Source: Gammaproteobacteria bacterium
GTDB taxonomy: Bacteria; Pseudomonadota; Gammaproteobacteria; Natronospirales; REEB76
Reading direction: 5' to 3'
Length of the DNA stretch: 53,573 nucleotides
NCBI GenBank assembly: GCA_028864905.1
Contig: JAGWLP010000002.1
Span: forward strand, 1-53,573
Part shown: one piece after another, positions 1,464 to 53,573 of the stretch
How positions within the stretch are numbered: the stretch's first letter is position 1
Layout of the letters: every line of letters starts with the position of its first letter
Made by a program: the position numbers and the translations under genes
Notes under the pieces: generated by a model
Seen by the model: the letters and a program-made list of their open reading frames with translations, nothing else
The model's database searches: none
What the model was told of the DNA's origin: nothing

Positions 1464-1476
1464 GCGCTTGCCTCGT

Positions 1477-24751: not shown

Positions 24752-24862
24752 ATGTAATCAGAGGCGCGGTCTAAAGGCAACCGGCAGCAAACTATTCCGC
24801 TCCCCGAGCCATCCGGTAACATGGCGCGCAGTGGCAATCACCATTTTTTCCGTCTCGCGACC

Positions 24863-39467: not shown

Positions 39468-39475
39468 GATTCAAA

Positions 39476-39498
39476 CCTCGGCCGCACCGGGGTTTTTT
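39476..39498 (+). terminator. hairpin plus T-run directly after tRNA-Gly
   Basis: CCTCGG-ccgca-CCGGGG (6 bp including one G:U) followed by TTTTTT. Confidence 0.55.
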
Positions 39499-39584
39499 GT
39501 TGTTTTGTCCGCACACGGTCGCGCCTGCGCTGAAGCTGTACGGCCGTGTATGGTAAATTTCTCCGGCTTTTCCGTTTCAGGAAT

Positions 39585-39655
39585 GGCTAGGTGGCAGAGT
39601 GGTCATGCAGCGGCCTGCAAAGCCGTGTACGCCGGTTCGATTCCGACCCTAGCCT
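39585..39655 (+). tRNA. cysT: tRNA-Cys (anticodon GCA)
   Basis: Acceptor stem GGCTAGG/CCTAGCC, anticodon loop CTGCAAA, discriminator T, and CCA not encoded. There is a G13:A22 mismatch in the D stem; E. coli tRNA-Cys has an analogous 13:22 (A:A) mismatch. There is one C:A mismatch in the T stem. Confidence 0.85.
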
Positions 39656-39675
39656 CGTTGATGTTTGACCTGCCC

Positions 39676-39764
39676 GCCCGGGTGGCGGAACTGGTAGACG
39701 CAAGGGACTTAAAATCCCTTGGCTGGCAACGGCCGTGCCGGTTCGAATCCGGCCCCGGGCACCA
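39676..39764 (+). tRNA. leuZ: tRNA-Leu (anticodon TAA), long variable arm
   Basis: Acceptor stem GCCCGGG/CCCGGGC, anticodon loop CTTAAAA, T arm GCCGG-TTCGAAT-CCGGC, and an encoded ACCA tail. Confidence 0.9.
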
Positions 39765-39936
39765 ATTTGGCGATGCGCGTCATGCTCAAAGAGCCATCCA
39801 TGGCATGAAGTCCAGCCCCGACATCGTGTCGGAGCGTTCGTGCCGACGCGAGTGATGCTCGCATGCAAGCGCGGCTCTCCGTGCCCAGAACCACCGCTAC
39901 GACGGCCGCTCGGTCGCACTGCAGGCGCTGCACAGG

Positions 39937-41970
39937 TCAGTGCAAGGTTCCGCCTGCGGAGCTGCGGGAGCGTACGGCTTTTACGTCGTTGGCGGTAACC
40001 GGCTTGCCCTGGTTGCCCCATGACGAGCGCTCATGGTTGATGATGTCGGCGATTTGCGCGTCATTGAGCACGCTGGCGAAGGGTGGCATTGGAGTTGGAT
40101 AAGTCCGACCGCCGATGTTGCGACCGTGTGCACCACGCAGAATCGTTTTGATCTGCTCCTCCGGATCCGGGTTCAGCACGACGGGGTCGTCCTTGAGTGG
40201 TGGAAACGCTCCCGGCAAACCCATGCCGGCGGGTTGATGGCAGGCGGCACAGTTGGCTGAGTAGAGTGAAGCACCTTGGGTTGCATCGTATTTGTAGGGA
40301 CCGGCAGGTTCGAGAGTAGCTGATGGAGCGCGGGCACCAGAATGCGCCGCCGTCACCGGTGAAGCCGCAGGCGCGCTCACTTGGGGTGACGGCGGGGCAG
40401 TACCGGGTGCCAGCACGTTAAAAACGCCTTGTGCGCCGATCATCGCGTGCGCCATATCGTGGTCCACAAAGGCGTATTTGCCCGGTTCCGGGATCACCAG
40501 ATCGAATATCGCGCCGGCGCCCGGACCCACGGTGTAGGTGGAAATGCCGCTCAAGGCGTGTGCAGCGTCGCCATCGGGATAAATTTTGTCGAACATCGCG
40601 CCGATTACGTGGAATGAACTCCACAGGTCCGGACCGGCGTCCACGAAATAAATGCGCACGCGTTCGCCGGCCGTGACCTGCAGAGGATGATCGCGGTACT
40701 GGAAGGCCGCGCCGTTGAAGACCACTTCGTCGGGGCGTTCCTGCAACATCTTCTCGAAATCCGGGCCCATCAAATGGCCGGAAACCTGCTGGGTGTACCA
40801 CTCGCTTTGCACGATCACGTAACTGTCGGCGGCCTTTGGCAGCGGCGTGACCGGATCCACGACGATGGCGCCGTACATGCCGTTGCCGATGTGCAGCAGC
40901 ACCGGCGGCGTGCCGCAGTGATACAGGAACACGCCGGGGGTGCTCGCCACGAACGAAAACTTGATGCTCTTGCCCGGATCCACGTCCACGTAATGCAGGC
41001 TGGGCGGAGTGATCGCGGCGTGAAAGTCAATCGAGTGCTGCATCGTGCCGTGGTTGGTGAAGGTCACGTTGGCCGTCTGGCCTTGGCGAACGTGGATGAC
41101 GGGGCCGGGAACCGTACCACCGTAAGTCCATGCCATATAGTCAACGCCGCTGGCGATGGCAACCTTGTCGTCGGTCGTCACCAAATCAACATTGACGCTG
41201 TTGCCGGTACCGACGAGCGGCGGCAGGCGCGCATCGCGCGTGGTGGAGATAGGCGTGCTCGAAGCGAGCACCAGCGGTGAAACCGCCGCCGCGGCCGCCG
41301 CAGGCGAGGGCGATTTGACGTTGAAGGCGCTGTGCAATCCAAGCACCAAGAGGACAAGCAACACCACGATCCCGGCCATGGCCGGGACCTGCACGCGCCA
41401 CGGCAGTGCCATGCGCACACGCGGGCGGGTCGTGTCGCGGCTCCACTCGGTAACCAGTTGCCATTTCGGCCAGCGACGTTCGATCAGGTAATCGAGGCTG
41501 TAAGGAATGAACCCGGCGCGGTAGTCGAGGCCGATCAAGGCCACGAAAATCAGCACGTAGCTGATTGCAGTACCCATGTTGGCCGCGCCTACCGTGTAGG
41601 GACCGCCGAAACCTTCGGCCGTGCTCCACACCGCCAGGCTGAACAGCGCCCCCAGCACGTACAGGGTTCGGCGCCCAAAACCAACCAGCAGCGCAAACGC
41701 CAGCACACTCTCGATGATGCGTGTGACCCAAATAAACAGACCGGCATTGGGCGTGACCACGGCAATCCACAGGTGGAACCAGCCGGCCGACCAACCCGGC
41801 TGTCCCTGGGCCGCGTTGTGCAAGTAGCCGACGTAGTGAAGCGCGAAGTCGGGCGTCCAGGTGAGCGCCGCACCCACCGCCCAAATGATGCCGAAGGCGA
41901 CGCGCAGCGCCGTAGTGGCTATGGCCGGCCAGGTTGCGACGAAGCGGTCGTGAGGATCTGTATCCGACAT
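39937..41970 (-). CDS. nirK: copper-containing nitrite reductase NirK with N-terminal polytopic membrane domain and C-terminal cytochrome c domain
   Basis: ATG at 41968-41970 (MSDTDPHD). About 220 aa of TM helices come first. The cupredoxin core has HSIDFH (T1/T2 Cu His plus catalytic Asp), YHCGTPPVLLHIGNGM (His-Cys...His...Met), SFHVIG and FVDHDMAH. The C-terminal domain carries CAACH. Confidence 0.85.
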   Translation of the reverse strand: MSDTDPHDRFVATWPAIATTALRVAFGIIWAVGAALTWTPDFALHYVGYLHNAAQGQPGWSAGWFHLWIAVVTPNAGLFIWVTRIIESVLAFALLVGFGRRTLYVLGALFSLAVWSTAEGFGGPYTVGAANMGTAISYVLIFVALIGLDYRAGFIPYSLDYLIERRWPKWQLVTEWSRDTTRPRVRMALPWRVQVPAMAGIVVLLVLLVLGLHSAFNVKSPSPAAAAAAVSPLVLASSTPISTTRDARLPPLVGTGNSVNVDLVTTDDKVAIASGVDYMAWTYGGTVPGPVIHVRQGQTANVTFTNHGTMQHSIDFHAAITPPSLHYVDVDPGKSIKFSFVASTPGVFLYHCGTPPVLLHIGNGMYGAIVVDPVTPLPKAADSYVIVQSEWYTQQVSGHLMGPDFEKMLQERPDEVVFNGAAFQYRDHPLQVTAGERVRIYFVDAGPDLWSSFHVIGAMFDKIYPDGDAAHALSGISTYTVGPGAGAIFDLVIPEPGKYAFVDHDMAHAMIGAQGVFNVLAPGTAPPSPQVSAPAASPVTAAHSGARAPSATLEPAGPYKYDATQGASLYSANCAACHQPAGMGLPGAFPPLKDDPVVLNPDPEEQIKTILRGAHGRNIGGRTYPTPMPPFASVLNDAQIADIINHERSSWGNQGKPVTANDVKAVRSRSSAGGTLH

Positions 41971-42220
41971 GAAAAATCTCTGATTTGAAGCTGCGTAGTT
42001 TATCCGCGGTGACCTTGGTAAGGCCTCTCCGGAGGCACGCACCTACCGAGGTCGACTGGCGCCAGCGATACGGTATGCACTCCGCGGGTGCCAGTAAATA
42101 GCCGTGGGCCGAGTCGCGCTCTCGCGCGGAACCCCGCACCTCCGCCGTGCGCATTGTTGACCGCACGGAGAATATCGTGATTCATTCGGCTGATGTTCCG
42201 GTTTTTGAAACCCCGGCGCG

Positions 42221-42234
42221 CTGATTTGGATCAA
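42221..42234. promoter_or_regulatory. FNR/Dnr-type box, 9/10 match (CTGAT-ttgg-ATCAA)
   Basis: Read directly from the sequence. It lies about 250 nt upstream of the nirK start in the nirK / 42440-operon divergent spacer. Confidence 0.5.
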
Positions 42235-42375
42235 TAAAAACGTCGGCTGATCCCCAGACCGGCGATGTCGCCCGTGGGCGCAGGAGCAAAGGCAGCGGTG
42301 GGCGGTGTTGGATTAGGTATCCGGACGTCGTCATTGTACGAGACCTCGGTAGCACCAGCAGCGGTTGGCATGAGC

Positions 42376-42389
42376 TTGATATAGATCAA
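42376..42389. promoter_or_regulatory. FNR/Dnr-type box, perfect (TTGAT-atag-ATCAA)
   Basis: The palindrome centre is about 57 nt upstream of the ATG at 42440. This suits a class II (-41.5) activator site with a short leader that contains AAGGAG. Confidence 0.7.
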
Positions 42390-42439
42390 TGCGGTTCCCC
42401 GGCGTGACGCGGCAGACTCCCGATGCAAGGAGTGTTGAG

Positions 42440-42904
42440 ATGGCCGATGTTGCGGTTGCCCTGGTTGTGCATGTGCTGTCGGTGGTGTGGTGGATCGGGA
42501 GCCTGGCGTTCATCACCGCGGTGTTCCTGCCGTTGTTGCGCAAGGCGCAGCTCGGGGATGAACAGGCGGCCTTCCATGCCATTGAGAACCGCTTCGAGCC
42601 GCAGGCGCGCATCGCCGTGGTGTTGGTGGGCCTGTCCGGCATTTACCTGCTGTTCCGGCTGAACCTCTGGTCCGTGTTCCTGCAGGCCAGGTTCTGGTGG
42701 CTGGATGCCATGGCCCTGTACTGGCTGCTGTTCATGCTGCTGTTGTTCGTGCTCGGACCCACAGGCGTGCTGCGGCATGTCATGCGCCGCGGCGGCGATG
42801 AGATGGCCCGCTGGCGCCGCATGCAACGGGTACATCTGGTGTTGCTGGTGATTGCGCTGGTGATTATCGCCGGCGCGGTATCGGGCAGTCACGGCTTCGG
42901 ATGA
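42440..42904 (+). CDS. small 4-TM membrane protein, uncharacterised
   Basis: ATG at 42440 lies 7 nt after AAGGAG. It has four hydrophobic helices, and the first (HVLSVVWWIGSLAF) loosely resembles CopD/HemJ-type helices. Its stop overlaps the next start (ATGA). Confidence 0.6.
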   Translation: MADVAVALVVHVLSVVWWIGSLAFITAVFLPLLRKAQLGDEQAAFHAIENRFEPQARIAVVLVGLSGIYLLFRLNLWSVFLQARFWWLDAMALYWLLFMLLLFVLGPTGVLRHVMRRGGDEMARWRRMQRVHLVLLVIALVIIAGAVSGSHGFG

Positions 42905-43443
42905 GGTCCATGCTGAGTTTCGATCCCTTTGCCGTGCTGGCCGACGAGCACGCAGTGCTCACGCAGTTGTTCGCCCGCCACCAGGCTGCCTTGGTCACGC
43001 GCGCGTGGGCACGCGCTGCACGCCTGCTGGATTCCCACCGGAAACGGCTGGCCCAGCACATCGAACTGGAAGAGCATTATCTTTTGCCTTATTGCCCGCG
43101 CGAGAAGTTGCCGAATCAATGGCCGGCACGGGTTTATTCCGCGGAACATCAGCGCATTCAGGAGCTGGCCAGCAAGCTGAACCTGCGGTTTGCCAAGCTG
43201 CGCCGTCGCGGCGTCACCACCACGACCCTGATTGCCTTGCTCGACGAGGAAAAGACACTGAAACACATCCTGGGACATCACCATGCGCGGGAGGAGACGG
43301 CATTGTTTGTGAACTTGTCGCAGGCGTTGTCCGAGACGCAGCGCGATGAGCTTGCCCAGGCACTCAGGCACCCCCCGCATTGCAGGCCAATGGTGCCCGT
43401 TAGTGCACGTGCCGGCGCAACGCCTCGGTATCCAGGATCGTGA
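42901..43443 (+). CDS. hemerythrin-like (HHE cation-binding) domain protein
   Basis: Repeated H/E motifs (ADEHAVL, HIELEEHYLLPY, AEHQRIQEL, LGHHHAREE). The last 44 nt overlap the convergent regulator gene. Confidence 0.65.
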   Translation: MRSMLSFDPFAVLADEHAVLTQLFARHQAALVTRAWARAARLLDSHRKRLAQHIELEEHYLLPYCPREKLPNQWPARVYSAEHQRIQELASKLNLRFAKLRRRGVTTTTLIALLDEEKTLKHILGHHHAREETALFVNLSQALSETQRDELAQALRHPPHCRPMVPVSARAGATPRYPGS

Positions 43444-44086
43444 CCCGATCCTCGGAAATCTCGATCAAGCCCTCGTCATTGAGCGCGCGCAGGATACGCG
43501 ACAGAGTTTCCGGCGTCACCGCCACGTGTGCGGCAATCAGCATCTTGCGCGCCGGCAGGGTCACGCTGACCCGGCCGTGCTCGCCGCGCGGTACCAGGCC
43601 CAACAGGTAATGCACCACGCGGTAGCGGCTGTTTTCCAGCGTCAGCGCCTCGATCTCGTCCCAGTGCGCCTGGATGCGCTGAGTCATCTGCGCCATCACC
43701 GCCCGGCAGGTGGCAAACGACTCCTGCAAGATGTCGAGGAAAGCGCCGCATTCAAAGGCCACGAGTTCGCCGGCTTCGACCCCGGCGCCGTGCACCGGGT
43801 AGCGCGGCGTGTCCATGAACATCACGCTCTCGGCGAAAGTCTGCGGCGGGCGGATGAAGCGCATGATTTTTTCATGACCGTCCGGTGACAGCCGGTAAAG
43901 CTTGACGCTGCCCTGGCGCAGCAGAAAGAAGCTCGCCGCCTCGTCGCCATGGCTGAACAGGTGCTCGCCGGCAGAGAACGGGCGCAGCGAGGCGTGGGTG
44001 AACACGCGCATGCGCTGCGCGTCGCTCAGGGCCGAGAACAGGTAATGGTGGCGCAATTCGCGCGCCAATGTGCCGTCGGGTTCCAT
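43400..44086 (-). CDS. Crp/Fnr-family regulator, Dnr/NnrR type (no N-terminal Cys cluster)
   Basis: The internal ATG at 44084-44086 gives MEPDGTLARELRHHYLFSAL (228 aa). It has a cNMP-like beta-roll and a C-terminal HTH with VTPETLSRILRAL (the E--SR motif of TTGAT-recognising members). The FNR Cys ligands are absent. Confidence 0.85.
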   Translation of the reverse strand: MEPDGTLARELRHHYLFSALSDAQRMRVFTHASLRPFSAGEHLFSHGDEAASFFLLRQGSVKLYRLSPDGHEKIMRFIRPPQTFAESVMFMDTPRYPVHGAGVEAGELVAFECGAFLDILQESFATCRAVMAQMTQRIQAHWDEIEALTLENSRYRVVHYLLGLVPRGEHGRVSVTLPARKMLIAAHVAVTPETLSRILRALNDEGLIEISEDRVTILDTEALRRHVH

Positions 44087-44125
44087 GTATTTCCCGCAGT
44101 AACTTCGAGAGGTGCCACGGCACGC

Positions 44126-44139
44126 TTGATTTGCATCAA
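44126..44139. promoter_or_regulatory. FNR/Dnr-type box, perfect (TTGAT-ttgc-ATCAA)
   Basis: It sits in the divergent spacer between the regulator (ATG 44086) and fdxA (ATG 44208). A CATTAT -10-like hexamer at 44165-44170 lies on the fdxA side. Confidence 0.7.
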
Positions 44140-44207
44140 GGCGCGCGCTCGCCGCCCGGCGCAGCATTATCCGCGCTCCGCTGGAAACTGGGCAAGGAGG
44201 CATGCCC

Positions 44208-44531
44208 ATGACGCATGTAGTGACCGAACAGTGCATCAAGTGCAAGTACACCGATTGCGTGGAAGTCTGCCCGGTGGACTGTTTCCATGCTGGCCCCAAC
44301 ATGCTGGTGATTGATCCGGAAGAGTGTATTGACTGCACGCTGTGCGTGGCGGAATGCCCAGTGGAGGCAATCTTCGCGGACAGTGACGTACCCAACGGCC
44401 AGGAGCATTTCCTGGCGCTCAATGCCGAATTGTCGCCGCAGTGGCCGGTGCTGGACCACAAAATTTCCGCGCCGTCCGACGCCAGGCAGTGGGACGGCGT
44501 GCCGAACAAGCTTCCATTGCTTACGCGCTGA
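44208..44531 (+). CDS. fdxA: 7Fe ferredoxin (3Fe-4S + 4Fe-4S), FdxA type
   Basis: [51 protein letters not shown]. The ATG at 44208 lies 7 nt after AAGGAGG. Confidence 0.9.
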
Positions 44532-44546
44532 GAGCAAGATAACGCC

Positions 44547-44825
44547 ATGGCGGCGCTGCAAATCCCCAATGCACAAAAGGTTTACCACGTGACCTGGAAG
44601 GACCTGCCATTGTCCTGTCCGACGCGGGCCATGAGCCTGTGGAATTCGCATCAGCGGGTATATCTGGACATTCAGGAAGACGGCGCGGCGCAATGTCCCT
44701 ACTGTGGTGCCATGTATATCCTCGAGGAGCAGGCTGAGCCGAACGAAGAACTTGCACAGCCGAATATCGAGATTGAAGGACTGCATCACCAGGCTCGTGA
44801 ACATACGCGTCGACATGCGAAATGA
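44547..44825 (+). CDS. zinc-finger (zf-CHCC-like) small protein
   Basis: LSCP...H...CPYCG arrangement in a 92 aa product, 15 nt downstream of fdxA. Confidence 0.55.
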   Translation: MAALQIPNAQKVYHVTWKDLPLSCPTRAMSLWNSHQRVYLDIQEDGAAQCPYCGAMYILEEQAEPNEELAQPNIEIEGLHHQAREHTRRHAK

Positions 44826-44996
44826 GCCAGTGGCATTCGACCGACGTATGATTCAATCTTGCTTCGGCTGCCGCCCGGATGCCGCTGACGCCGTCATGTC
44901 GATTCGAGTCTAGTCAACATGCGCATGGAACCTCATGTACGCAGTTTGCAGTTTGCGACAATCATCCCGTAAAACCTTGAACAATCGGAGCTTGTC

Positions 44997-45440
44997 ATGA
45001 ACATGAAAGTTGCATTGGGCTTATTGGTTGCCGTATCCCTGATCGCGGTCAACGCCTATGCCAAGGACTATACGGTGAAGGAATTGAACAGTGGCGCGGG
45101 CGGCAGCTTCGTTTTCGAACCGGACTTCTTGCACATTCAGCCGGGAGATTCCGTGCACTTCGTGGCCACCGATGCCGGTCACGACAGCCAGTCGTACCTG
45201 GTGCCCGAAGGCGCGGCGGGCTGGAAGAGCGAGATCAGCAAGGACGTTACCGTGAAGTTTACCCATCAAGGCGTGTACCTTTACGAGTGCAACCCGCACC
45301 ACTTGTTTGGCATGCTGGGAGTGATCGAGGTAGGCAAGGCGATCAACAAAGAGGAAGCCAAGAAGGCCGCCGAGGCCATGGAGGCACAGCAATTGATGAA
45401 CAAGGGTCGGCTCGAGAAGCTGATGAAAGACGTGAGATAA
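44997..45440 (+). CDS. pseudoazurin (type 1 blue copper protein)
   Basis: Signal peptide present. The Cu ligands follow the pseudoazurin pattern: His (TDAGHD) and C-x2-H-x4-M (YECNPHHLFGM). It also has the characteristic C-terminal helical extension. Confidence 0.85.
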   Translation: MNMKVALGLLVAVSLIAVNAYAKDYTVKELNSGAGGSFVFEPDFLHIQPGDSVHFVATDAGHDSQSYLVPEGAAGWKSEISKDVTVKFTHQGVYLYECNPHHLFGMLGVIEVGKAINKEEAKKAAEAMEAQQLMNKGRLEKLMKDVR

Positions 45441-45475
45441 ATTCGAGCATCCAACGGCAGACCAGGGGAGCTGAC

Positions 45476-46885
45476 ATGCAAGCAATGGTCACGTCTTCGT
45501 CGTCGGGGCTGACGGCGGCGGATGAAGGGGCGCTGCGTACAGTTTTCAACGTGTACACGCTGTGCGCGGCGCTGTGGCTGGTGTTTGCCACCTTCATCGG
45601 TATCGTGCTGGCGTTCAAGTTCGTGTATCCGGAGTTCTGGGCGCACGCGGGCTGGCTTACATTCGGGCGGCTGCGGCCGATCCATACCAACGATACCTTT
45701 TATGCCTGGGCGAGCATCGGGCTCGTGGGCCTGGCCTATTACATTGCGGCGCGCAGCTCGCGGGCGCGCCTGTACAGCGCCAAGCTCGCCTGGGTGGGGC
45801 TCGCGCTTTTCAACATTGCCGCCATTGCCGGCACCGTGACGCTGGATCTCGGCATCAACGACGGCACACTCGAATACCGCGAGTGGGTCTGGCCGATCCG
45901 CCTGGTGTTTCTGGCGGCGCTGGTGGTGACCGCGTGGAATCTCATCGCGACGGTGGCACACCGCAATACCAAGGACATCTATCTTTCCAATTGGTACACC
46001 ATCGGCGGGGTGCTGTGGACCTGCATCATTGCCATCGTGGCCATCATTCCCTGGTACCAGTACGGCCTCGGCCAAGTGGCGGTCTCGGGCTTTTTCATGC
46101 ACAACGCCGTCGGCCTGTGGTTCACGCCCATGGCACTCGGCATTCTGTATTACGCCATTCCCAAGCTCTTCAGCCGGCCGATTTACTCCTATGCGCTCGG
46201 TGTGTTCGCGTTCTGGACCAACCTGATTTTCTATCCGATCATTGGCTCGCACCATTTCCTGTTCAGTCCCTTGCCGTGGTGGCTGCAGACCATCGCCATC
46301 GTGTTTTCGGTGGCGATGCTGGTGCCGGTGTGGGCGGGCAGCGCGAATTACCTGCTCACCATGCGCGGGCGTCCGCAGCGCCTGTACCGCTCACCAGCGA
46401 TGTTCGTGCTCGTGGGCGTGCTCGGCTATCTCATCGGCTCGAGTCAGGGCACGGCCGAGGCCTTCCGCTCGCTGCAGGAAGTCTGGCATCTCACCAACTT
46501 CACGGTCGGTCATTCACACCTCACCATGTACGGATTCATCACCTTCGTCATCTGGGGCGGGGTGTACGGGCTCCTGCCGCGCATCACCGGCAAGCAGGCC
46601 AACAATCTGCTCATGGGCATCCATTTCTGGTGGGCCACGATTGGCATGATCATTTATGTGCTGGCGCTCTCGATCGGCGGCACCATTCAGGGACTCGATT
46701 GGATACACGGCCTGCCGTTCATTGATTCGGTGGTAAACATGGCGCCGTACTGGCTGTGGCGCGCCATCGGCGGCGGCATGATGTTCCTCAGCCATCTGCT
46801 GTTCCTGTGGAACGTCTGGTTCATGACTTATGGGCGGAAGCAACCCAAGGCCTTGGCGGTGACGGCAACGGAGGCCGCGGCATGA
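45476..46885 (+). CDS. ccoN: cbb3-type (C-family) heme-copper oxidase subunit I, CcoN-like
   Basis: ATG at 45476 after GGGGAG. Motifs are FFMHNAVGLWFTP, FYPIIGSHHF (HH CuB ligands with Tyr six residues upstream) and TVGHSHLTMYGF. Confidence 0.85.
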   Translation: MQAMVTSSSSGLTAADEGALRTVFNVYTLCAALWLVFATFIGIVLAFKFVYPEFWAHAGWLTFGRLRPIHTNDTFYAWASIGLVGLAYYIAARSSRARLYSAKLAWVGLALFNIAAIAGTVTLDLGINDGTLEYREWVWPIRLVFLAALVVTAWNLIATVAHRNTKDIYLSNWYTIGGVLWTCIIAIVAIIPWYQYGLGQVAVSGFFMHNAVGLWFTPMALGILYYAIPKLFSRPIYSYALGVFAFWTNLIFYPIIGSHHFLFSPLPWWLQTIAIVFSVAMLVPVWAGSANYLLTMRGRPQRLYRSPAMFVLVGVLGYLIGSSQGTAEAFRSLQEVWHLTNFTVGHSHLTMYGFITFVIWGGVYGLLPRITGKQANNLLMGIHFWWATIGMIIYVLALSIGGTIQGLDWIHGLPFIDSVVNMAPYWLWRAIGGGMMFLSHLLFLWNVWFMTYGRKQPKALAVTATEAAA

Positions 46886-47859
46886 AGGCGCTCATCCTGA
46901 TCGCCGGCGGCTCGACGCTGGTGTACGCGATACTCGCGGTACTGATGGGCGTGCTGCCGGGCATCGAGTTGTCGAAGACTCCGCCTGGCCCGGGCGTGGA
47001 ATCCCTGACCCCGCTCGCAGCCAAAGGCCGCGCTGTGTATGTCGCCAACGGATGCAGCTATTGTCACACCCAGCAGGTGCGGCCGCTGCCGGAGGATCGC
47101 GTGTTCGGCCGGCCGACCGCAGCCGGCGACCTGGTTTACCAGACGCCGGAACTCCTCGGTTCGGAACGCAATGGCCCGGATCTTTCGAATATCGGCAATC
47201 GCCAGCCGAGCAAAGTCTGGCAATACATGCATCTGTACGATCCGCGCTCGGTGCAGCCGCTGTCCATCATGCCGGACTTCAGTTTTCTGTTTCGCGTGGT
47301 GGCTGAGGCGCCGCCGGGCGTTACACCGGTGGCGCTGCCGCCCGCCTACGCGCCGAAGCACGGCGTGGTGATTCCGACACAGAAAGCGGTAGCGCTGGTG
47401 GCCTACCTCCTGTCACTCAAGCAGCCGCCGATTCCCGGTTATGTACCACCGGCTGTGCCGATGCCCAGTGCCGTGCCTTCCACACCCGCCGCGGGCGGTG
47501 CGCCGGCAGCCGCGCCGGCGTTTGATGCAACCGAGGGCGCGCAACTTTTCTCACAAAACTGCGCGGTCTGCCATCAGGCGAACGGCGAGGGCATCACGGG
47601 TGCATTTCCGCCGCTCAAGGGCAACGCCGCAGTGCTGAACGACGACCCCACACAGCAGCTCCACGTGATACTCGAAGGCCTTTCGAATACCAACGTCGGT
47701 GGTACCGTCTATCCGGGTGCCATGCCGCCGTTCAAGACGGTGCTGAGTGACAGCCAGATCGCCAATATCGTTGATCACGAGCGCACCTCCTGGGGCAATA
47801 ATGCGAAGCTGGTGACGCCGGCCGAGGTCGCGACGGAACGCGCAAAGTTGAAGCACTAG
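46882..47859 (+). CDS. ccoO: CcoO-like monoheme subunit fused to a C-terminal monoheme cytochrome c domain
   Basis: The ATG overlaps the ccoN stop (ATGA). It has an N-terminal TM, then GRAVYVANGCSYCHTQQVRP and ERNGPDLSNIGNR...W...HLYDPRSV (CcoO signature). A Pro/Ala-rich linker leads to a second heme site, CAVCH. Confidence 0.8.
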   Translation: MKALILIAGGSTLVYAILAVLMGVLPGIELSKTPPGPGVESLTPLAAKGRAVYVANGCSYCHTQQVRPLPEDRVFGRPTAAGDLVYQTPELLGSERNGPDLSNIGNRQPSKVWQYMHLYDPRSVQPLSIMPDFSFLFRVVAEAPPGVTPVALPPAYAPKHGVVIPTQKAVALVAYLLSLKQPPIPGYVPPAVPMPSAVPSTPAAGGAPAAAPAFDATEGAQLFSQNCAVCHQANGEGITGAFPPLKGNAAVLNDDPTQQLHVILEGLSNTNVGGTVYPGAMPPFKTVLSDSQIANIVDHERTSWGNNAKLVTPAEVATERAKLKH

Positions 47860-47869
47860 GAGCCTGCGC

Positions 47870-48034
47870 ATGGAACATCATCTGATGGGACCGCTGATCG
47901 GCAATATAATCATTCTGGCGGGGGGAGGGTTGATCACCCTGGGTTGTTACGTGTACGCCATCTGGCTCCTGATCCATCCGGGCGAGCATGACCAGCATCA
48001 CCCCAAATACGGAGTGCTCGACGATGACCGCTGA
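47870..48034 (+). CDS. 54-aa single-TM protein (CcoQ-like position), not in ORF track
   Basis: My own translation: MEHHLMGPLIGNIIILAGGGLITLGCYVYAIWLLIHPGEHDQHHPKYGVLDDDR. GGAG lies 8 nt upstream and the gene follows the ccoO-like gene immediately. Confidence 0.4.
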   Translation: MEHHLMGPLIGNIIILAGGGLITLGCYVYAIWLLIHPGEHDQHHPKYGVLDDDR

Positions 48035-48515
48035 ACCGTTAAACGAACGCCGGCGCGCGCAGGTCCAGATTTACGTGGACGACAATCCGGTGCCGATCGC
48101 CGAGCAGCCGTTGCCGACACGTGTACGGCTCAACACCTACACGCTGGTGGACGGCAATCATCGCATCACGGTCCGGGCTACCGATGTCACCGGCAAGGTT
48201 TCGGTCCGCGAGATTCCGTTCAAGGTGGACAACGGTCCGGGACTCGCGGTGACCGGGCTGGCACCGAACAGCATCCGGCACGGCATCATCGAACTCGGTG
48301 TGAATGCCTTCAGCGCCGACGAGCCCTTCGAGCCGGAACGCGCCGAGACCCATTCCTCCATACCGGTGTGGGTGTGGGTAATGCTGCTCATCATCGTGGG
48401 CTGGGCCGGGTGGTACGGTCAGCTCATGTGGCACCCGCCGGCGCAATTTGCCCAAAGCCCCACTTACCACGTATATACGGTATCGCCAAACGCCAGCAGC
48501 CCAACCGGCGGTTAA
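48024..48515 (+). CDS. Ig-like domain protein with C-terminal TM anchor, uncharacterised
   Basis: ATG at 48024 (or 47988). A beta-rich N-terminal part (HRITVRATDVTGKVSVREIPFKVDNGPGLAV) is followed by the TM IPVWVWVMLLIIVGWAGWYG. It is the last gene of the oxidase operon. Confidence 0.5.
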   Translation: MTAEPLNERRRAQVQIYVDDNPVPIAEQPLPTRVRLNTYTLVDGNHRITVRATDVTGKVSVREIPFKVDNGPGLAVTGLAPNSIRHGIIELGVNAFSADEPFEPERAETHSSIPVWVWVMLLIIVGWAGWYGQLMWHPPAQFAQSPTYHVYTVSPNASSPTGG

Positions 48516-48588
48516 GCCGGACCTGCTACCCGCGTTTTCTCGGGTGGCCGGATGTGAATCGAGTGGCGGACTGTTGACCGCCGCGCGT

Positions 48589-49749
48589 CTATCCTAGGCG
48601 CGGCGCGAACATCAGCGGCAGAAAGCGCAGGAAATAAATCGCGAAGGCCAGTGCCCAGAGCACGCTGGCGACCGGCAGCAGCCCGGGAGTGTTGATCAGG
48701 CGCAGTACCGCCGCCACGCTCACCAGCACGAAGGCCGCGGCCATGAACGGGCCGGCGGCCATCGCCCGTCCGGTGTGACCGAGCGCTATGCGCGTCATCA
48801 TGCCGATGGAGAGCGAGCCGAGCGCGCCTACGGTGATCGCGTGCAACGCGGTGATTTCGGGAAGTGCGGAGGAGAGCAGTGCGGCGCCGCGCAGCGCCAG
48901 TCCCGCCGCCAGCCACAGATAACCCAAGTGCAGTACCCACAGCATCGGCTCGCGCCAGGCTTTCCATGGCTGCCATAACCACCAGCGCAGCAGCACCAGC
49001 AGCGCGACCGCGAGCGACACCGTGGCGAGCAGCGCGGATTCCGGCCACACGATGTCGAGCAGTACCAGCAGCGCCGCGCCGCCGTTCACGCTCCAGTCGA
49101 GCCAGCGGTAACGCTGGACGGTCGCGTGGCTCAGGCGCCGCGCGGTGAAAAACGGAATCACGCGCCCGCCGATACTGAGCATCAGCACCGTGAACAGGTC
49201 GATGACCCAGTACAGTACGCTGCGTTCCGCTACGTGGATGACGCCAGTGACGCTCAGATGAAACGCCACGTCCGCAAGCGTGAATGCCGACAGCAGCCCG
49301 ATCACGAAATAATTGCGGCGGTTGCGGCTTTTGATGATCGGCCGCGCCACCATGAGCAGCAGCAGGCCAAAGTAGCCGCAGTCCAGGAACGCCGTAAGCG
49401 CATAGGGTACACGTGCCGGCAGCAGGAACAGCACGCGCGCGGCCAGCCACACCGCCAGCAGCAGCACGAGTGAGGCCGGCGTGAAAGTGGCAAGCTTGGT
49501 CCATTCGGCCACGGCCGTGAGCAGGAATCCCGCCACCAGCGCACCCGCAAAACCGAACAGCATTTCGTGGCCATGCCACGCGAGCGGCGGCAGGGAACTG
49601 GCGGGCAGCAGGCCCAAGTGCAGGAACAGCGCCCAGGTAAAAATGCCGAGTGAAGCCGCGAGCGCCGCACACAGGAACAGCGGCCGGAACGGTTGCTGCA
49701 AGATGGGCGGCGCGTTCACGCTGCGTGCGGCGGGGGCGGGGATACTCAT
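48589..49749 (-). CDS. nnrS: NnrS-family heme/copper membrane protein
   Basis: About 12 TM segments. Motifs PFRPLFL, WHGHEMLFGF, GGRVIPFF and HAITVGALGSL are typical of NnrS. The start overlaps the pncB stop (ATGA). Confidence 0.85.
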   Translation of the reverse strand: MSIPAPAARSVNAPPILQQPFRPLFLCAALAASLGIFTWALFLHLGLLPASSLPPLAWHGHEMLFGFAGALVAGFLLTAVAEWTKLATFTPASLVLLLAVWLAARVLFLLPARVPYALTAFLDCGYFGLLLLMVARPIIKSRNRRNYFVIGLLSAFTLADVAFHLSVTGVIHVAERSVLYWVIDLFTVLMLSIGGRVIPFFTARRLSHATVQRYRWLDWSVNGGAALLVLLDIVWPESALLATVSLAVALLVLLRWWLWQPWKAWREPMLWVLHLGYLWLAAGLALRGAALLSSALPEITALHAITVGALGSLSIGMMTRIALGHTGRAMAAGPFMAAAFVLVSVAAVLRLINTPGLLPVASVLWALAFAIYFLRFLPLMFAPRLG

Positions 49750-50906
49750 ACGGCGAAAACCTTCCTGAGATAGGCGAGATAACCCGGGTCAGTGCACAGG
49801 GTCTTGGCGGGATCGTCGCTGATCTTGGCCACGGCCTGGCCGTTGCAGCGCGTCATCTTGATGATCATGTCGGGCGGGGCGAATCCCATATCGTTGCTGA
49901 GGTGCGTGCCGATCCCGAAGCCCAGGCGCACGCGGCCGTGAAAGTGTTCGAAGATGCGCAGCGCCTTGGGGAAGTCCAGTGCGTCGGTGAACACCAGCGT
50001 CTTCGTGAGTGGGTCAACGCGCAGCGTGTGGTAATGCTCCACCAAGCTCTCGCCCCACGTAATGGGATCGCCGGAGTCCTGGCGCACGCCGTCGAACAGC
50101 TTGCAGAAGTACAGGTCGAAATCCCGCAGGAAAGCCGCCAGTCCGATCACGTCGCTGAGCGCGATGCCGAGATCCCCGCGGTACTCCTGTTCCCAGCTTT
50201 CGAGTGCGAAGCGTTGACTGTCAACGAGCCGCGGTCCCAGAGCCTGGCAGGCCTGCAGGAACTCGTGACCCATGGTGCCAATGGGAGTCAGACCCAGCTC
50301 TTTGGCCAGCAGCACGTTGCTGGTACCGGCGAGATTCCCGGGCAGCGCTGCGGCCAAGCGCTGCACCACGCTGCGCTGCCAGTCGCGCGCATAGCGCCGA
50401 CGGGTGCCGAACTCGCTGAAGCGGAATGCCGCATGCCCGGGATGCGCGCGCAGCAGCGCGATTTTTGCCTCCAGGCGTGCCCGGCCTTCCTGCAGGGTAT
50501 CGGCATTGCGCCGGGATTCGGCGTACACCTCGCTCAGGATCGCGAGCACCGGCACCTCGAACAGGATAGTGTGCAGCCAGGGGCCGCGGATCACGATTTC
50601 CAGGGCACCGTTCTCGACGCTTACGCTGACGTGGTCCGGCTGCAACTGGAAGATGCGCAGGATGTCCACGAAGTCCTTTTTCATGTAGCGCAGGTTGCGC
50701 AGGTAGGCGAGCTCCTGCGGCGTGAACCGCAGGCGGCAGAGCGCGGCGATTTCGTCACGGATGCGTTCAACGTGTGCGGCCAGCGTGTCGGGCTCATTGC
50801 GGCAGCGGAAGCGGTATTCGACTTCGGCGGCCGGGAAGCGGTGCAGCACCGCCTGCATCATGGTGAGCTTGTAGAGATCGGTGTCGAGCAGCGATTCGAT
50901 GATCAT
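49746..50906 (-). CDS. pncB: nicotinate phosphoribosyltransferase
   Basis: MIIESLLDTDLYKLTMMQAVLH N-terminus with EFGTRRR and GTSNVLLA motifs. Confidence 0.9.
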   Translation of the reverse strand: MIIESLLDTDLYKLTMMQAVLHRFPAAEVEYRFRCRNEPDTLAAHVERIRDEIAALCRLRFTPQELAYLRNLRYMKKDFVDILRIFQLQPDHVSVSVENGALEIVIRGPWLHTILFEVPVLAILSEVYAESRRNADTLQEGRARLEAKIALLRAHPGHAAFRFSEFGTRRRYARDWQRSVVQRLAAALPGNLAGTSNVLLAKELGLTPIGTMGHEFLQACQALGPRLVDSQRFALESWEQEYRGDLGIALSDVIGLAAFLRDFDLYFCKLFDGVRQDSGDPITWGESLVEHYHTLRVDPLTKTLVFTDALDFPKALRIFEHFHGRVRLGFGIGTHLSNDMGFAPPDMIIKMTRCNGQAVAKISDDPAKTLCTDPGYLAYLRKVFAV

Positions 50907-50932
50907 GTGTGCATCGTGCCGGGGAGAGCAGC

Positions 50933-50946
50933 TTGATGCAAATCAA
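50933..50946. promoter_or_regulatory. FNR/Dnr-type box, perfect (TTGAT-gcaa-ATCAA)
   Basis: It sits in the divergent spacer between pncB (ATG 50906) and the FmdE-like gene (ATG 51023). The spacing fits a -41.5 site for the plus-strand gene better than for pncB. Confidence 0.65.
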
Positions 50947-51022
50947 TGCGCACGGCGCTGCCGTGGCCTACAAGGAGCTTCCCACAGGTTGATGTGCCCC
51001 GGTGCGGGCAGGAGTCGGGCCG

Positions 51023-51634
51023 ATGATGCGTTATCCCGAATTTTTCGACGCCGCGCCGGTGATCACGATGCGCGATCCGCTCGCCGAGTTTCTCGGCGCC
51101 ATGCAGGACGGCCTCATGGAATATCGTTACGCCAACGTGGTCGCGCTGGCCGGACATTCCTGCCCCACGGTCGCGGCGGCGTTCCTCATGACGCGTGCCG
51201 CGCTCAACGCGCTCTATCCGGACGAGGTGCCGCTGCGCGGTGACATCCGGGTTGCGGTCAGCGGCGCGCAATACCAGGGCACGGTCGGCGTCACGGCCAA
51301 CGTGGCCAGCCTGATTACCGGCGCGGCCGGAGACGGAGGATTCAAGGGCATCGGCGGCCGTTTCAAACGCTGCGAGCTGCTGGCCTTCGATGCGGAGCTG
51401 AACGCGGAAATGAGTTTCACGCGTGCCGACGGCGGCGCGTGCGTGGAGGTGTCCGCCGACTTGTCGCCGGTGCCCATGGATGCGCGCGTGCGGGAATTGC
51501 TGCCGCTGTGTCTGGGTGGAAGCGCCGATCCATCGGAGATCGGCGAATTCCGCCGCCTGTGGCAGGAGCGCGTGCGCCGTCTGCTGCTGGATCATAAGGA
51601 CGATCCGGCGGTGATCCGCGTCCGCATGCATTGA
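51023..51634 (+). CDS. FmdE-like domain protein (tentative)
   Basis: ATG at 51023 or 51026. The motif LAGHSCPTVAAAF resembles the FmdE H-x-C-P motif, and it is followed by a beta-rich region. The assignment is by eye only. Confidence 0.5.
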   Translation: MMRYPEFFDAAPVITMRDPLAEFLGAMQDGLMEYRYANVVALAGHSCPTVAAAFLMTRAALNALYPDEVPLRGDIRVAVSGAQYQGTVGVTANVASLITGAAGDGGFKGIGGRFKRCELLAFDAELNAEMSFTRADGGACVEVSADLSPVPMDARVRELLPLCLGGSADPSEIGEFRRLWQERVRRLLLDHKDDPAVIRVRMH

Positions 51635-51843
51635 GACCGGCGTTGCCGTGCTCCCGCCCGCGCGCAGCGGCGCATGCGCAGGTTTGTCTTGCGGGCCGTG
51701 CCTGAGCCCGGGTGCGCCCTGCGCGGTCACAAACTCCATAGCGCGGCGCGCCAGTACATTCACGCCATCGTCCAGCATGGCGCCGGCCTCCTCGGGCAAA
51801 TGTGCAACGCGCACCAGCCTAGGCGCAGTGCGGGTTGCGGGCC

Positions 51844-51857
51844 TTGATGCACATCAA
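51844..51857. promoter_or_regulatory. FNR/Dnr-type box, perfect (TTGAT-gcac-ATCAA)
   Basis: The centre is about 66 nt upstream of the Rieske ATG. A TAAAGT -10-like hexamer at 51879-51884 gives near-ideal class II spacing. Confidence 0.7.
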
Positions 51858-51916
51858 GGCAGGTGCGCGCAGCGGCGCTTAAAGTGCCGGGCAACCGCAG
51901 CACAGGAGGGCTTGGC

Positions 51917-52234
51917 ATGTCACAATGGATCGCAGCCGCACAGCTCGGCGAAATTCCCGACCACAAATCCAAAGTCATCACGCTCAACGGTTCCGATGTC
52001 GCCGTGTTCAACCTGAGCGGCGAGTATTTTGCCATCGAAGACATCTGCACACATGACGGCGGCGACATCTCGGGCGGCTGGGTGGAAGGCGAGCATGCGG
52101 TGTGCCCGCGGCATCTCGCGGAATTCTCCATCCGTACCGGCGCGGCGCTCAAGGCGCCGGCCTACGAGGGCGTGCACAGCTTTCCGGTGCGCGTGCGCGG
52201 TGCAGTCATTGAAGTCTGCGATGACCGCGAGTGA
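51917..52234 (+). CDS. soluble Rieske [2Fe-2S] ferredoxin
   Basis: ATG at 51917 after AGGAGGG. The motif C-T-H-x17-C-P-R-H (CTHDGGDISGGWVEGEHAVCPRH) is present in a 105 aa product with no TM. Confidence 0.8.
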   Translation: MSQWIAAAQLGEIPDHKSKVITLNGSDVAVFNLSGEYFAIEDICTHDGGDISGGWVEGEHAVCPRHLAEFSIRTGAALKAPAYEGVHSFPVRVRGAVIEVCDDRE

Positions 52235-52255
52235 GGCGTGCGGGGACGGCGAGTC

Positions 52256-53573
52256 ATGGTAAGCAACCGTCTGTCGCGCTGGACCCTGCTGTTCTTTGCC
52301 TGTGCATTGGTGAATTTCCTGGCTGCGCAGGGCGTGATTCTTTCCGGTGCAAGCTGGCCGATGCAGCCGGTATCCGCGCCCGGCACGCTGGTGGCCGTGC
52401 ACCTGCTCACCATCGGCTGGCTGCTGCTGCTGATGCTGGGCGCGTTGTTCCAGTTCATCCCGGTAATTACATCGAATGTGTTGCCGAGCCAGCACCTGGA
52501 GCTGGCAACGTTGGGCGCCATCGAAGTCGGTTTGCTGCTCATGATCTGCGGATTCATCGGCATGGGTTTGGGCGCGGCGCTGATCGTCCGCTGTCTGCCG
52601 GTCGGTGGCGCTCTGGTCATCGCCGGTGTGCTGCTGGCCTGTTACGACCTCGGCGTGCCGCTCCTCAAGGCACGGCCGTTGACCTTGCCCGGCCGCATGG
52701 CGCTCACCGGCCTGGTGTTTCTGCTCGTCACCATCACGCTCGGGCTGTTGTTCGCACTCACCATCAGCGTCCCGGCGCTGTCCGGGCGTTTAGGTGTGCT
52801 GCTGGCCGATGGCGTCGGCTTGCATGCGCTCGCGGGCCTGGGTGGCTGGTTCACGCTCACGGCCATGGGGGTGACTTACAAGCTCGTGCCCATGTTCACG
52901 CTCGCGCCCGAGGAGCGCGGCTTGGCCGGTGAGCTGGTGCATTACCTCGCGGCCGCGGGGTTTGCCTTGGCGCTGATTTTCGGCCTACTGCACATCTGGA
53001 TACCGGTATGCACCCTGCAGGGCGTGGAATATACCGGATATCTGCTGGTGGTGGTGGGCATCGGCATTTATCTCTGGGACATGGCGCGCATCTATCGCAC
53101 GCGCAGACGCGCGGTGCTTGAGCTGCACAACAAGGCGGCGGTAGGCGCATTCGTGCTGCTCGGAGCCTGCGTGGTGATGGCGCTGGTGCTGGCCGGATTG
53201 GGACGGTCGGCCGACGATGCAGCGGTCTTCGTGTTCCTGGTGGTGTTCGGCTGGCTGAGCGGGTTGGGGCTCACGCAGCTTTACAAGATTGTGCCGTTTC
53301 TGGCCTGGCTTGGCCGCTTCGGCCAGAAACTCGGGCGCGGGCCGGTGCCGCGCGTGCAGGATCTCGTGGATGAAGCCCGCGGCTATCCGTGGTTCATCAT
53401 TTATTTCATCGGCGTATCGCTGGCGGTACTCGCGGCCTTCAGCGACGAGTTTTATGTTTTCCGTGCCGGTATCGGACTGGGCGTGATCGCCACGCTCGGA
53501 TTGATGCTCGAGTCCTGGCGCGCTTGGCGCGGCTATTACGCGGCGCGCAAGCCACAGGTTGCGCCGAAGCTGC
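52256..53573 (+). CDS. uncharacterised polytopic (at least 12 TM) membrane protein, 3-prime partial
   Basis: It is absent from the ORF track because it has no stop inside the window. I translated from ATG 52256 to the window end and found no stop (MVSNRLSRWTLLFFACALVNFLAAQG...). It has at least 12 hydrophobic helices and a repeated motif: VHLLTIGW-x12-FQFIPV, LHALAGLGGW-x10-YKLVPMF and FGWLSGLGLTQLYKIVPF. Codon usage is GC3-rich, as in neighbouring genes. Confidence 0.65.
   Translation, partial: MVSNRLSRWTLLFFACALVNFLAAQGVILSGASWPMQPVSAPGTLVAVHLLTIGWLLLLMLGALFQFIPVITSNVLPSQHLELATLGAIEVGLLLMICGFIGMGLGAALIVRCLPVGGALVIAGVLLACYDLGVPLLKARPLTLPGRMALTGLVFLLVTITLGLLFALTISVPALSGRLGVLLADGVGLHALAGLGGWFTLTAMGVTYKLVPMFTLAPEERGLAGELVHYLAAAGFALALIFGLLHIWIPVCTLQGVEYTGYLLVVVGIGIYLWDMARIYRTRRRAVLELHNKAAVGAFVLLGACVVMALVLAGLGRSADDAAVFVFLVVFGWLSGLGLTQLYKIVPFLAWLGRFGQKLGRGPVPRVQDLVDEARGYPWFIIYFIGVSLAVLAAFSDEFYVFRAGIGLGVIATLGLMLESWRAWRGYYAARKPQVAPKL

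Follow-up and report, generated by a model that had tools for sequence, protein, structure and literature searches.

The question raised by this locus is which protein, answering to which signal, acts on a group of TTGAT-N4-ATCAA palindromes that lie between positions 42221 and 51857 of a 53,573-bp stretch of gammaproteobacterial DNA (contig JAGWLP010000002.1; the whole stretch is referred to here as the window). The palindromes, or boxes, are scattered among genes for a predicted copper nitrite reductase, a cbb3-type oxidase, a CRP/FNR-family regulator and several proteins without assigned function. With a probability of about 0.7, all four perfect palindromes are operators of the DNR-type regulator encoded at 43400-44086 (dnr), as the imperfect one probably is too, and the genes that they face belong to a module induced by nitric oxide (NO). 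The significance, conservation and orientation of the motif, its spacing to -10-like hexamers and the family of the regulator were computed, and from these we infer the binding protein, the signal and the direction of regulation.

The pattern TTGATNNNNATCAA was counted in the window and in 100 dinucleotide-preserving shuffles of it. Four perfect copies were found, at 42376-42389 (box 2, TTGATATAGATCAA), 44126-44139 (box 3, TTGATTTGCATCAA), 50933-50946 (box 4, TTGATGCAAATCAA) and 51844-51857 (box 5, TTGATGCACATCAA), whereas the shuffles contained 0.02 on average and none of the 100 held four. Since the G+C content of the window is 61.7%, such an AT-rich palindrome is even rarer by chance. When one mismatch was allowed, the sole extra match was at 42221-42234 (box 1, CTGATTTGGATCAA, 9 of 10 positions); 0.95 such matches are expected per window, and no shuffle reached five. 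All five boxes fall within 9.6 kb and, after gene starts had been corrected, every one of them was intergenic. An earlier note, made from the letters of this DNA, had reported the same four perfect boxes, had judged them too rare for chance, had found no further match in the window and had placed all five between genes, and each of these statements agrees with the counts. Boxes 1 and 2 share the spacer between the ATG of a nitrite reductase fusion gene at 41970 (minus strand) and that of a gene for a protein with four transmembrane helices (the 4-TM gene) at 42440. Box 3 lies between the ATG of dnr at 44086 (minus strand) and that of fdxA at 44208, box 4 between the ATG of pncB at 50906 (minus strand) and that of an FmdE-like gene at 51023, and box 5 between the stop codon of the FmdE-like gene at 51634 and the ATG of a Rieske ferredoxin gene at 51917.

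A scan with one genome per species yielded 52 loci carrying relatives of the regulator at 38-92% identity (823 kb, about 20 kb each), from Steroidobacteraceae-like and other gammaproteobacterial metagenome-assembled genomes and from Salinisphaera. The loci were numbered from L001, the closest relative, whose regulator is 92% identical. They contained 69 perfect boxes against 0.33 in Markov simulations. Although 77% of the locus DNA was called coding by a crude gene caller, 61 of the 69 were intergenic, and some of the "coding" boxes are errors of this caller, for example box 3 of the window. A position weight matrix (PWM) was built from 112 intergenic sites of these loci; its consensus is C-TTGAT-N4-ATCAA-G, position 5 being T or C, with C at -1 and G at +14 in 76% of sites each. 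It agrees with the motif CTTGATnnnnATCAAG that Rodionov et al. (2005) gave for DNR, where the flanking C...G extension was derived for DNR orthologues (PMC1274295), and with the Anr/Dnr consensus TTGA(T/C)N4(A/G)TCAA of Pseudomonas aeruginosa (PMC4860495). In the window, C stands at -1 of all four perfect boxes, and the base at +14 is G in boxes 3 and 5 and T in boxes 2 and 4. The PWM scored box 2 at 24.4, boxes 3 and 4 at 26.0 each and box 5 at 30.1, the highest value. In the window, neither the one-mismatch scan nor the PWM found any further box above background outside 42-52 kb, and both found none before the pseudoazurin gene, ccoN or nnrS. Across the relatives the N4 spacer and the flanks vary while the distances from box to gene start stay fixed, and nearly every one of the 52 loci has dnr in physical linkage with box-bearing genes.

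The distances point to how the boxes may work. A box centred near -41.5 occupies the classical position of a class II activator of the FNR/CRP type. When the promoters were aligned on the box and oriented toward the gene, a NANNNT hexamer began 23 or 24 nt past the edge of the box in 55 of 61 and almost nowhere else (background rate 7%), and in 86-100% of promoters the three bases next to the box, toward the target gene, were GGC. An offset of 23 or 24 nt is where a -10 element is expected for a box centred at -41.5 or -42.5. Of 39 fdxA orthologues, 35 had a box within 80 nt of the start and 37 had one within 400 nt; the distance from box centre to start was mostly 72.5-78.5 nt and the hexamer was present in 91%. 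The corresponding distances were mostly 64.5-68.5 nt for the Rieske gene (hexamer in 10 of 10, 100%), 55.5-57.5 nt in L001-L004 for the 4-TM gene (92%), 83.5-84.5 nt in L001 and L004 for the FmdE-like gene (0 of 4, with TACAAG or TAAAAG, which have no final T) and 41.5 nt for the gene of a heme-copper oxidase (HCO)-fold protein where it stands directly behind a box (100%). The distances to the divergent genes were variable, 24-162 nt for dnr (hexamer in 17%) and 18.5-95.5 nt for pncB (0%, 0 of 4). The boxes are therefore not positioned, as far as these predicted promoters go, for dnr or pncB; box 3 is predicted to serve fdxA and box 4 the FmdE-like gene.

The window follows the same geometry. 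Box 2 faces the 4-TM gene and its hemerythrin partner, with its centre 57.5 nt from the ATG and CAGACT at offset 24 (42413-42418). Box 3, within the divergent dnr/fdxA spacer, faces fdxA at 75.5 nt, with the GGC flank and CAGCAT at offset 23 (44162-44167). Box 4, which overlaps the upstream region of pncB, faces the FmdE-like gene at 83.5 nt, with TACAAG at offset 23 (50969-50974), and box 5 faces the operon of the Rieske ferredoxin and the HCO-fold protein at 66.5 nt, with the GGC flank and TAAAGT at offset 23 (51880-51885). Transcription is predicted to start near 42425, 44174, 50981 and 51892 and, for box 1, near 42186 on the minus strand. The supposition that the palindromes are non-regulatory, being products of chance, repeat elements or recombination sites, can appeal to their shortness and to nothing else; it is met by an excess of at least 200-fold, by the strong intergenic bias and by the fixed distances both to orthologous starts and to the -10-like hexamer. 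A chance or non-regulatory origin of the four perfect boxes is excluded, and the supposition as a whole is practically negligible.

Box 1 has to be judged separately. The earlier note had counted it as a fifth copy; it does exist at 42221-42234, but it is statistically weak. Its PWM score is 12.7, and the highest-scoring positions in background coding DNA reach 11.7 and 11.6, so by sequence alone box 1 is no better than chance. About one such match is expected in the window anyway, the flanking C and G are both absent, and the centre of the box is 257.5 nt from the ATG of the nitrite reductase fusion gene that it faces. That gene and box 1 are, moreover, missing from L001, in which the 4-TM promoter comes immediately after the tRNA cluster (window 39854-42375 against L001 11711-12100), so the nirK module represents an indel of about 2.5 kb beside the tRNA cluster. 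It is quite possible on these grounds that box 1 is a chance near-match and that the fusion gene escapes direct control by the regulator in this genome. However, box 1 is intergenic and on the correct side of nirK, and the minus-strand hexamer GAACAT stands exactly at offset 23 (42198-42193), a coincidence with a background rate of about 7%; beyond the location of the box, this hexamer is the sole positive evidence for it. Perfect boxes also precede NirK-family genes in L016 and L035 (in L035 by way of a cupredoxin gene), and nirK is a classical DNR target (PMC1274295). Box 1 is accordingly kept as a candidate weak DNR site facing the fusion gene.

A further proposal is that boxes 3 and 4 also repress the genes on their other side, box 3 by negative autoregulation of dnr and box 4 by acting on pncB-nnrS. 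Box 3 is centred 46.5 nt from the ATG of dnr and box 4 33.5 nt from that of pncB, with no -10-like hexamer on either of these sides; since both are too close to the start codons for class II activation, repression may be what they exert there. If TTGCCC-18-GATAAT, which resembles a sigma-70 promoter on the minus strand (44195-44166), drives dnr, box 3 would fall at about +20 to +33 of its transcript. The AT-rich putative -10 segment of fdxA, CAGCATTATC (plus strand, 44162-44195 region), reads GATAAT on the minus strand, and the fdxA and dnr promoters could be overlapping, divergent and mutually exclusive, with dnr under negative autoregulation. However, the promoter scan gave fewer matches than the shuffles did (2 against 3.3), the arrangement is kept only in the closest relatives, with dnr distances running from 24 to 162 nt, and nnrS is normally induced by NO (PMC1274295), which makes its repression unexpected. 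Such a second role was considered rather unlikely.

The regulator is a protein of 228 aa in the CRP/FNR family (dnr, 43400-44086, minus strand), with the Pfam domains cNMP_binding (PF00027, 1.2e-15) and HTH_Crp_2 (PF13545, 5.5e-16). Its closest solved relative is DNR of P. aeruginosa (3dkw), with E=8e-45 and 38% identity over 213 ungapped residues, as against 5e-8 for FNR, 1e-6 for NtcA and 2.5e-6 for CRP; no NnrR structure exists, and no NCBIfam equivalog matched at its cutoff. The recognition helix ETLSR occupies residues 193-197, of which E193, S196 and R197 are kept by 53 of 53 clade members. Apart from C113 and C127 the protein has no cysteines, and an N-terminal cysteine cluster for a [4Fe-4S] centre is missing. 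By these comparisons the protein is placed in the DNR subgroup. The reading of boxes of the FNR/Dnr type with a local Dnr-type regulator, proposed before on the strength of the ETLSR helix and the missing FNR cysteines, is upheld by both the protein comparison and the conservation of the boxes in the 52 loci.

Because ANR/FNR and DNR share this motif, an oxygen sensor encoded outside the window could also bind the boxes. An oxygen-sensing FNR or ANR would then occupy them alone or upstream of DNR, and the signal would be anoxia and not NO. ANR acts at the dnr promoter in Pseudomonas. The boxes found upstream of dnr itself in many loci would fit such a cascade from ANR to DNR, the window shows just 53 kb of the genome, and the consensus TTGA(T/C)N4(A/G)TCAA is indeed common to both regulators (PMC4860495). 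However, no FNR-type regulator with a cysteine cluster was seen in the window or in the 52 loci, and the boxes are tightly co-localised with dnr across the 52 genomes, which favours DNR and is still compatible with dual control. The C...G extension was derived for DNR orthologues (PMC1274295), and the boxes facing dnr seldom have a correctly spaced hexamer (17%, against a background of 7%). Taken together, control by FNR or ANR was regarded as unlikely.

The content of the regulon in the relatives supports a role in NO metabolism and denitrification, as judged from the predicted products. Boxes precede genes for qNor, NnrS, NirK, CcoN, an alternative oxidase and AhpD-like proteins, as well as a lipoyl-synthase-like radical SAM protein. 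Another boxed gene encodes a large protein that was read by eye from its sequence as a class II ribonucleotide reductase; in P. aeruginosa, activation of nrdJ by Dnr has been demonstrated (PMC4860495). In L015, fdxA is followed by qNor and an nnrS-like gene. The 4-TM gene is co-transcribed with qNor in L009, with NirK in L016 and with an nnrS-like gene in L035, and in the first two of these it stands, together with the hemerythrin gene, behind qNor and behind NirK, respectively. The ccoN orthologues of L022 and L036 have a box of their own, and the box in the dnr/ccoN spacer of L035 faces the ccoN operon.

On the preferred reading, that the boxes are DNR operators, each box would lie about 41.5-42.5 bp before the point at which a weak sigma-70 promoter starts transcription, and a DNR dimer at this class II position would contact RNA polymerase. 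Four units would be switched on in this way: the 4-TM protein with the hemerythrin, fdxA with a zf-CHCC protein (possibly on into pseudoazurin and the cbb3 oxidase), the FmdE-like protein, and the Rieske ferredoxin with the HCO-fold membrane protein. A fifth unit, the membrane-anchored fusion of NirK and cytochrome c, would be switched on more weakly. The signal would be NO made by NirK and sensed through bound haem, by analogy with DNR of P. aeruginosa. Since the signal would be NO from NirK, the cluster would amount to an NO-induced module for nitrite respiration and NO handling.

Several observations weigh against this reading. The haem ligands proposed for P. aeruginosa DNR are His139 and His187; position 139 is Q in the window regulator, and H187 is present but is found in just 30 of 53 clade members, so the sensing chemistry may differ. 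The near-invariant histidines of the clade are H14 and H141. NO sensing by this regulator is thus suggested by its family and not by its own sequence. The position at -41.5 is deduced only from the -10-like hexamer, and the FmdE-like promoter has TACAAG, without the final T, in this place. No box was found before the FmdE-like genes of the betaproteobacteria Sulfuricystis and Ramlibacter, so the regulatory link of this gene appears to be lineage-specific. The 172-nt gap in front of the pseudoazurin gene contains neither a box nor a detected terminator, and the background-level score of box 1, together with its 257 nt to the start of the fusion gene, makes the link to nirK weak. Lastly, ANR/FNR and DNR recognise the same box, and their sites cannot yet be distinguished (PMC4860495).

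The genes themselves were mapped by selection of open reading frames (ORFs) guided by G+C content at third codon positions (GC3), by Pfam and NCBIfam scans and by direct translation. The gene facing box 1 (39937-41970, minus strand) encodes a protein of 677 aa with three modules: a domain of about 200 aa at the N terminus, which has several transmembrane helices and matches no Pfam family, then two cupredoxin domains, and a cytochrome c at the C terminus (Pfam Cu-oxidase_2/_3 and Cytochrom_C). It scored 196 bits against TIGR02376 over residues 281-543, under the cutoff of 296, and the copper ligand motifs HSIDFH and HC-x8-H-x4-M (type 1 and type 2) can be read in it. The fusion is predicted to be a copper nitrite reductase of the NirK type with a two-cupredoxin core. 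The earlier note had listed it as a known nirK; the gene is an unusual three-module fusion on an indel. This architecture is not new, being shared by many full-length homologues of about 670 aa from Rhodanobacter, Frateuria, Castellaniella and elsewhere. These homologues are named "nitrite reductase (NO-forming)" by JGI and mostly annotated as "multicopper oxidase domain-containing protein" only.

The first gene behind box 2 encodes the 4-TM protein (42440-42904, plus strand, 154 aa), whose conserved histidines are H11 and H132 and whose Pfam matches are weak (CopD 8e-5, DUF4149 2e-4, UPF0093 0.03). Profile-profile comparison of this family with the 12-TM family described below, NnrS, CcoN and qNor gave nothing significant. 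The start of the next gene (42901-43443, plus strand) overlaps the stop codon of the 4-TM gene; it encodes a hemerythrin-domain protein of 180 aa (Pfam Hemerythrin 3e-9). Its assignment as a RIC/YtfE equivalog was rejected, since it scored 18 bits against TIGR03652, for which the cutoff is 205.

Box 3 faces the most conserved box target of the clade, fdxA (44208-44531, plus strand), which encodes a 7Fe-type ferredoxin of 107 aa (Pfam Fer4 and DUF3470). Sixteen nt past it lies the gene of a zf-CHCC zinc-finger protein (44547-44825, plus strand, 92 aa; Pfam 3e-6, 27.5 bits against a cutoff of 27), which is kept after fdxA in L001, L003, L004 and L009. Next comes the pseudoazurin gene (44997-45440, plus strand, 147 aa), whose product scored 111 bits against TIGR02375 (cutoff 110). 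The gene is intact here and in L004, but in L001 a partial deletion has left just its 3' end, encoding ...EAMEAQPLLNKRRLEQLMQAVK*, between zf-CHCC and ccoN (about 9041-9259, minus strand). A terminator and promoter scan of the gap between the zf-CHCC and pseudoazurin genes gave counts at or below those of shuffles, and when the gap was aligned in four relatives, nothing but a TATAAT-like element and the pseudoazurin remnant of L001 came to light. The transcript of fdxA and zf-CHCC possibly reads through into pseudoazurin and the cbb3 oxidase.

The catalytic subunit of this oxidase, CcoN (45476-46885, plus strand, 469 aa), matched the CcoN structures 9g6b and 3mk7 with E of about 1e-60, and the alignment keeps the histidine of HNAVG, the cross-link Tyr six residues before HH, and GHxH. 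These values bear out the cbb3 label given to it before. That it might be a nitric oxide reductase (NOR) was rejected, since the CuB histidine, Tyr and HH ligands are kept and the match to NorB reached only 8e-7. The following gene (46882-47859, plus strand, 325 aa) encodes CcoO fused to a monohaem cytochrome c (Pfam FixO and Cytochrom_C); it scored 132 bits against NCBIfam PRK14486, under the cutoff of 447, and since the equivalog scores fall below cutoff the oxidase appears to be a divergent subtype. Between it and the gene of a 163-aa protein (48024-48515, plus strand; weak match to the Ig-like Pfam family Big_13, 5e-4, below cutoff) lies an ORF of 54 aa with a single transmembrane helix (47870-48034, plus strand). 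An ORF of 61 aa at the same place in L035 is 69% identical by tblastn (E=3e-21), and the small product may be a CcoQ-like oxidase subunit. The 163-aa gene, the last of the cbb3 cluster, is kept beside ccoO-c in L001, L003, L004, L035 and L036.

On the minus strand follow nnrS (48589-49749; Pfam NnrS 5.8e-101) and pncB, for nicotinate phosphoribosyltransferase (49746-50906; Pfam NAPRTase 2.5e-67), the latter divergent from the FmdE-like gene. As they overlap by 4 nt, the two appear to form an operon; L001 and L003 have the same pair, and in L004 a short gap separates the two genes. To our knowledge, NAD salvage and NnrS have not been connected before. The gene set given in the earlier note was right in that the boxes link denitrification genes to unknown ones, but it had left out pncB-nnrS, the zf-CHCC gene and the 54-aa ORF.

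The FmdE-like protein (51023-51634, plus strand, 203 aa) has an invariant GHSCPT motif and about 2,800 homologues. Its Pfam FmdE match is sub-threshold (E=0.032), and some homologues are named FmdE family or carry PF02663. The AlphaFold2 model (pLDDT 93.5) has FmdE-like proteins as its top four PDB fold matches (2gvi, 2glz and 3d00 among them), with E of about 1e-4 and TM-scores of just 0.43-0.57, which makes the FmdE-like label, as a prediction from the model, a reasonable one.

Beyond box 5 lie a Rieske [2Fe-2S] ferredoxin gene (51917-52234, plus strand, 105 aa; Pfam Rieske 5e-17), with the ligands CTH...CPRH readable in the translation, and the gene of a protein with 12 transmembrane helices (12-TM), which starts at 52256 on the plus strand and runs off the end of the window at 53573. 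An ORF at 52231-52932 is out of frame and was rejected as this gene. Box 5 is two-sided: toward the 3' end of the FmdE-like gene it is also followed by GGC and, at offset 23, by TAGGCT (TAGCCT in L004). This second side is kept in the window (51809-51843, minus strand), in L001 (2698-2730) and in L004 (2384-2415), while the surrounding spacer differs, and it may act as a divergent promoter from which an antisense transcript would run into the FmdE-like gene. A small ORF on this side was rejected, as the window and L001 do not share its peptide and L004 leaves no space for it.

The 12-TM protein in its correct frame had no match in a Pfam scan, and its approximately 940 homologues, where they have a name, are all "hypothetical protein", within a family of about 2,150 clusters at 50% identity. 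The AlphaFold2 model of a full-length homologue, P0121 (94% identical; pLDDT 86.9, pTM 0.84), had HCO subunit I or NorB as all of its top 48 PDB matches, with TM-scores near 0.6 and E-values as low as 9e-6. Remote members of the family score above the Pfam COX1 threshold, and profile-profile comparison of the family with NnrS, CcoN and qNor gave nothing significant; the link to COX1 is made only through the fold search and these remote members. An HCO subunit I fold is thus predicted for the protein with high confidence from the model. Invariant histidines are confined to helix II (H49) and the start of helix VI (H190), the latter within YHALAGxGGW, a sequence that recalls the CuB-ligand motif; helix X is devoid of histidine. 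The six canonical histidine ligands of a catalytic HCO or NOR are not found in the protein, and with two invariant histidines and none in helix X it is not a canonical oxidase or NOR. It had been called unknown before, which holds in so far as the named homologues are all hypothetical and is superseded by the predicted fold and the two histidines.

The protein presumably resembles two-histidine "three-unit HCOH" (HCO-homology) families. These families were reportedly described by Pei, Li, Kinch and Grishin in 2014 and proposed for denitrification and NO detoxification. The 12-TM family has probably been defined computationally already, with a role of this kind suggested; what is new here is the regulatory tie to a DNR-type box, together with a Rieske partner of its own. 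The two-histidine 4-TM protein may resemble the single-unit HCOH families. In Acidiferrobacteraceae, Rhodospirillales and another lineage, the 12-TM gene heads an operon with two DUF2249 genes and a gene for a DUF59-type protein, in one instance beside a Crp/Fnr gene and a one-mismatch box. An association of DUF2249 with HCO is credited to Pei et al. (2014) in a later paper (PMC11218638).

No canonical NOR is seen next to nirK in the cluster, and none was found elsewhere in the window. An ORF of 762 aa (24821-27109) considered for this role was rejected, being a patatin/Omp85 protein. It was therefore considered, as a speculative and improbable idea, that the two two-histidine membrane proteins, the 12-TM protein with its Rieske ferredoxin and the 4-TM protein with its hemerythrin, are unrecognised redox modules that reduce NO or dispose of it otherwise in place of a canonical NOR, with FdxA as a possible source of electrons.

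The entire cluster sits, in both the window and L001, at the uvrC-pgsA/tRNA-Gly/Cys/Leu site. In the window a uvrY-like regulator gene, uvrC and pgsA lie upstream of it, and the tRNAs for Gly, Cys and Leu are at 39392-39764; the Rfam scan of the window found these three tRNAs and no other match. The arrangement is presumably the same in E. coli (uvrC-pgsA-glyW-cysT-leuZ). The remainder of the window holds housekeeping genes without a box. At its other end, a gene for an Rrf2-family regulator (1477-1944, minus strand) adjoins sufB (9-1589, minus strand), with no FNR-type box nearby; the regulator is probably IscR- or SufR-like rather than NsrR.

The system described here closely resembles the DNR regulon of denitrifying Pseudomonas and beta-proteobacteria, with which it shares the motif including the flanking C...G, the regulator family (38% identity, the E-SR helix, no Fe-S cysteines), the inferred class II architecture, and targets such as nirK, nnrS-linked genes and oxidases, joined in the relatives by qNor and the class II ribonucleotide reductase read by eye (PMC1274295, PMC4860495). 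It differs in its lineage, uncultured Steroidobacteraceae-like gammaproteobacteria and Salinisphaera, in the absence of nirS, norCB and nosZ from view, and in its uncharacterised targets (HCO-fold protein and Rieske ferredoxin, 4-TM protein and hemerythrin, FmdE-like protein). The haem ligands of P. aeruginosa DNR are only partly conserved, and fdxA, here the most conserved target, was not described as a DNR target in the literature that was searched. With the FNR/ANR regulons and the NnrR regulons of alpha-proteobacteria it shares the half-sites TTGAT/ATCAA, the class II position at -41.5 and the overlapping target classes of cbb3 oxidase, nirK and nnrS. Unlike FNR, however, the window regulator has no N-terminal cysteine cluster, and its match to FNR structures (5e-8) is far poorer than that to DNR (8e-45). 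A regulon of this type has been known from comparative genomics since at least 2005, and no new regulatory principle is involved.

What the analysis provides is a comparatively validated DNR-type regulon for poorly studied soil and sediment gammaproteobacteria near Steroidobacteraceae, extending to Salinisphaera. It singles out the 7Fe ferredoxin as a core target, and it gives a regulatory context, probably one of induction by NO, to several widespread protein families of no known function, namely the HCO-fold protein with its Rieske ferredoxin, the 4-TM protein with its hemerythrin, the FmdE-like protein and the zf-CHCC protein. It thereby supplies candidates for the missing steps of NO handling and N2O production in nirK-type denitrifiers.

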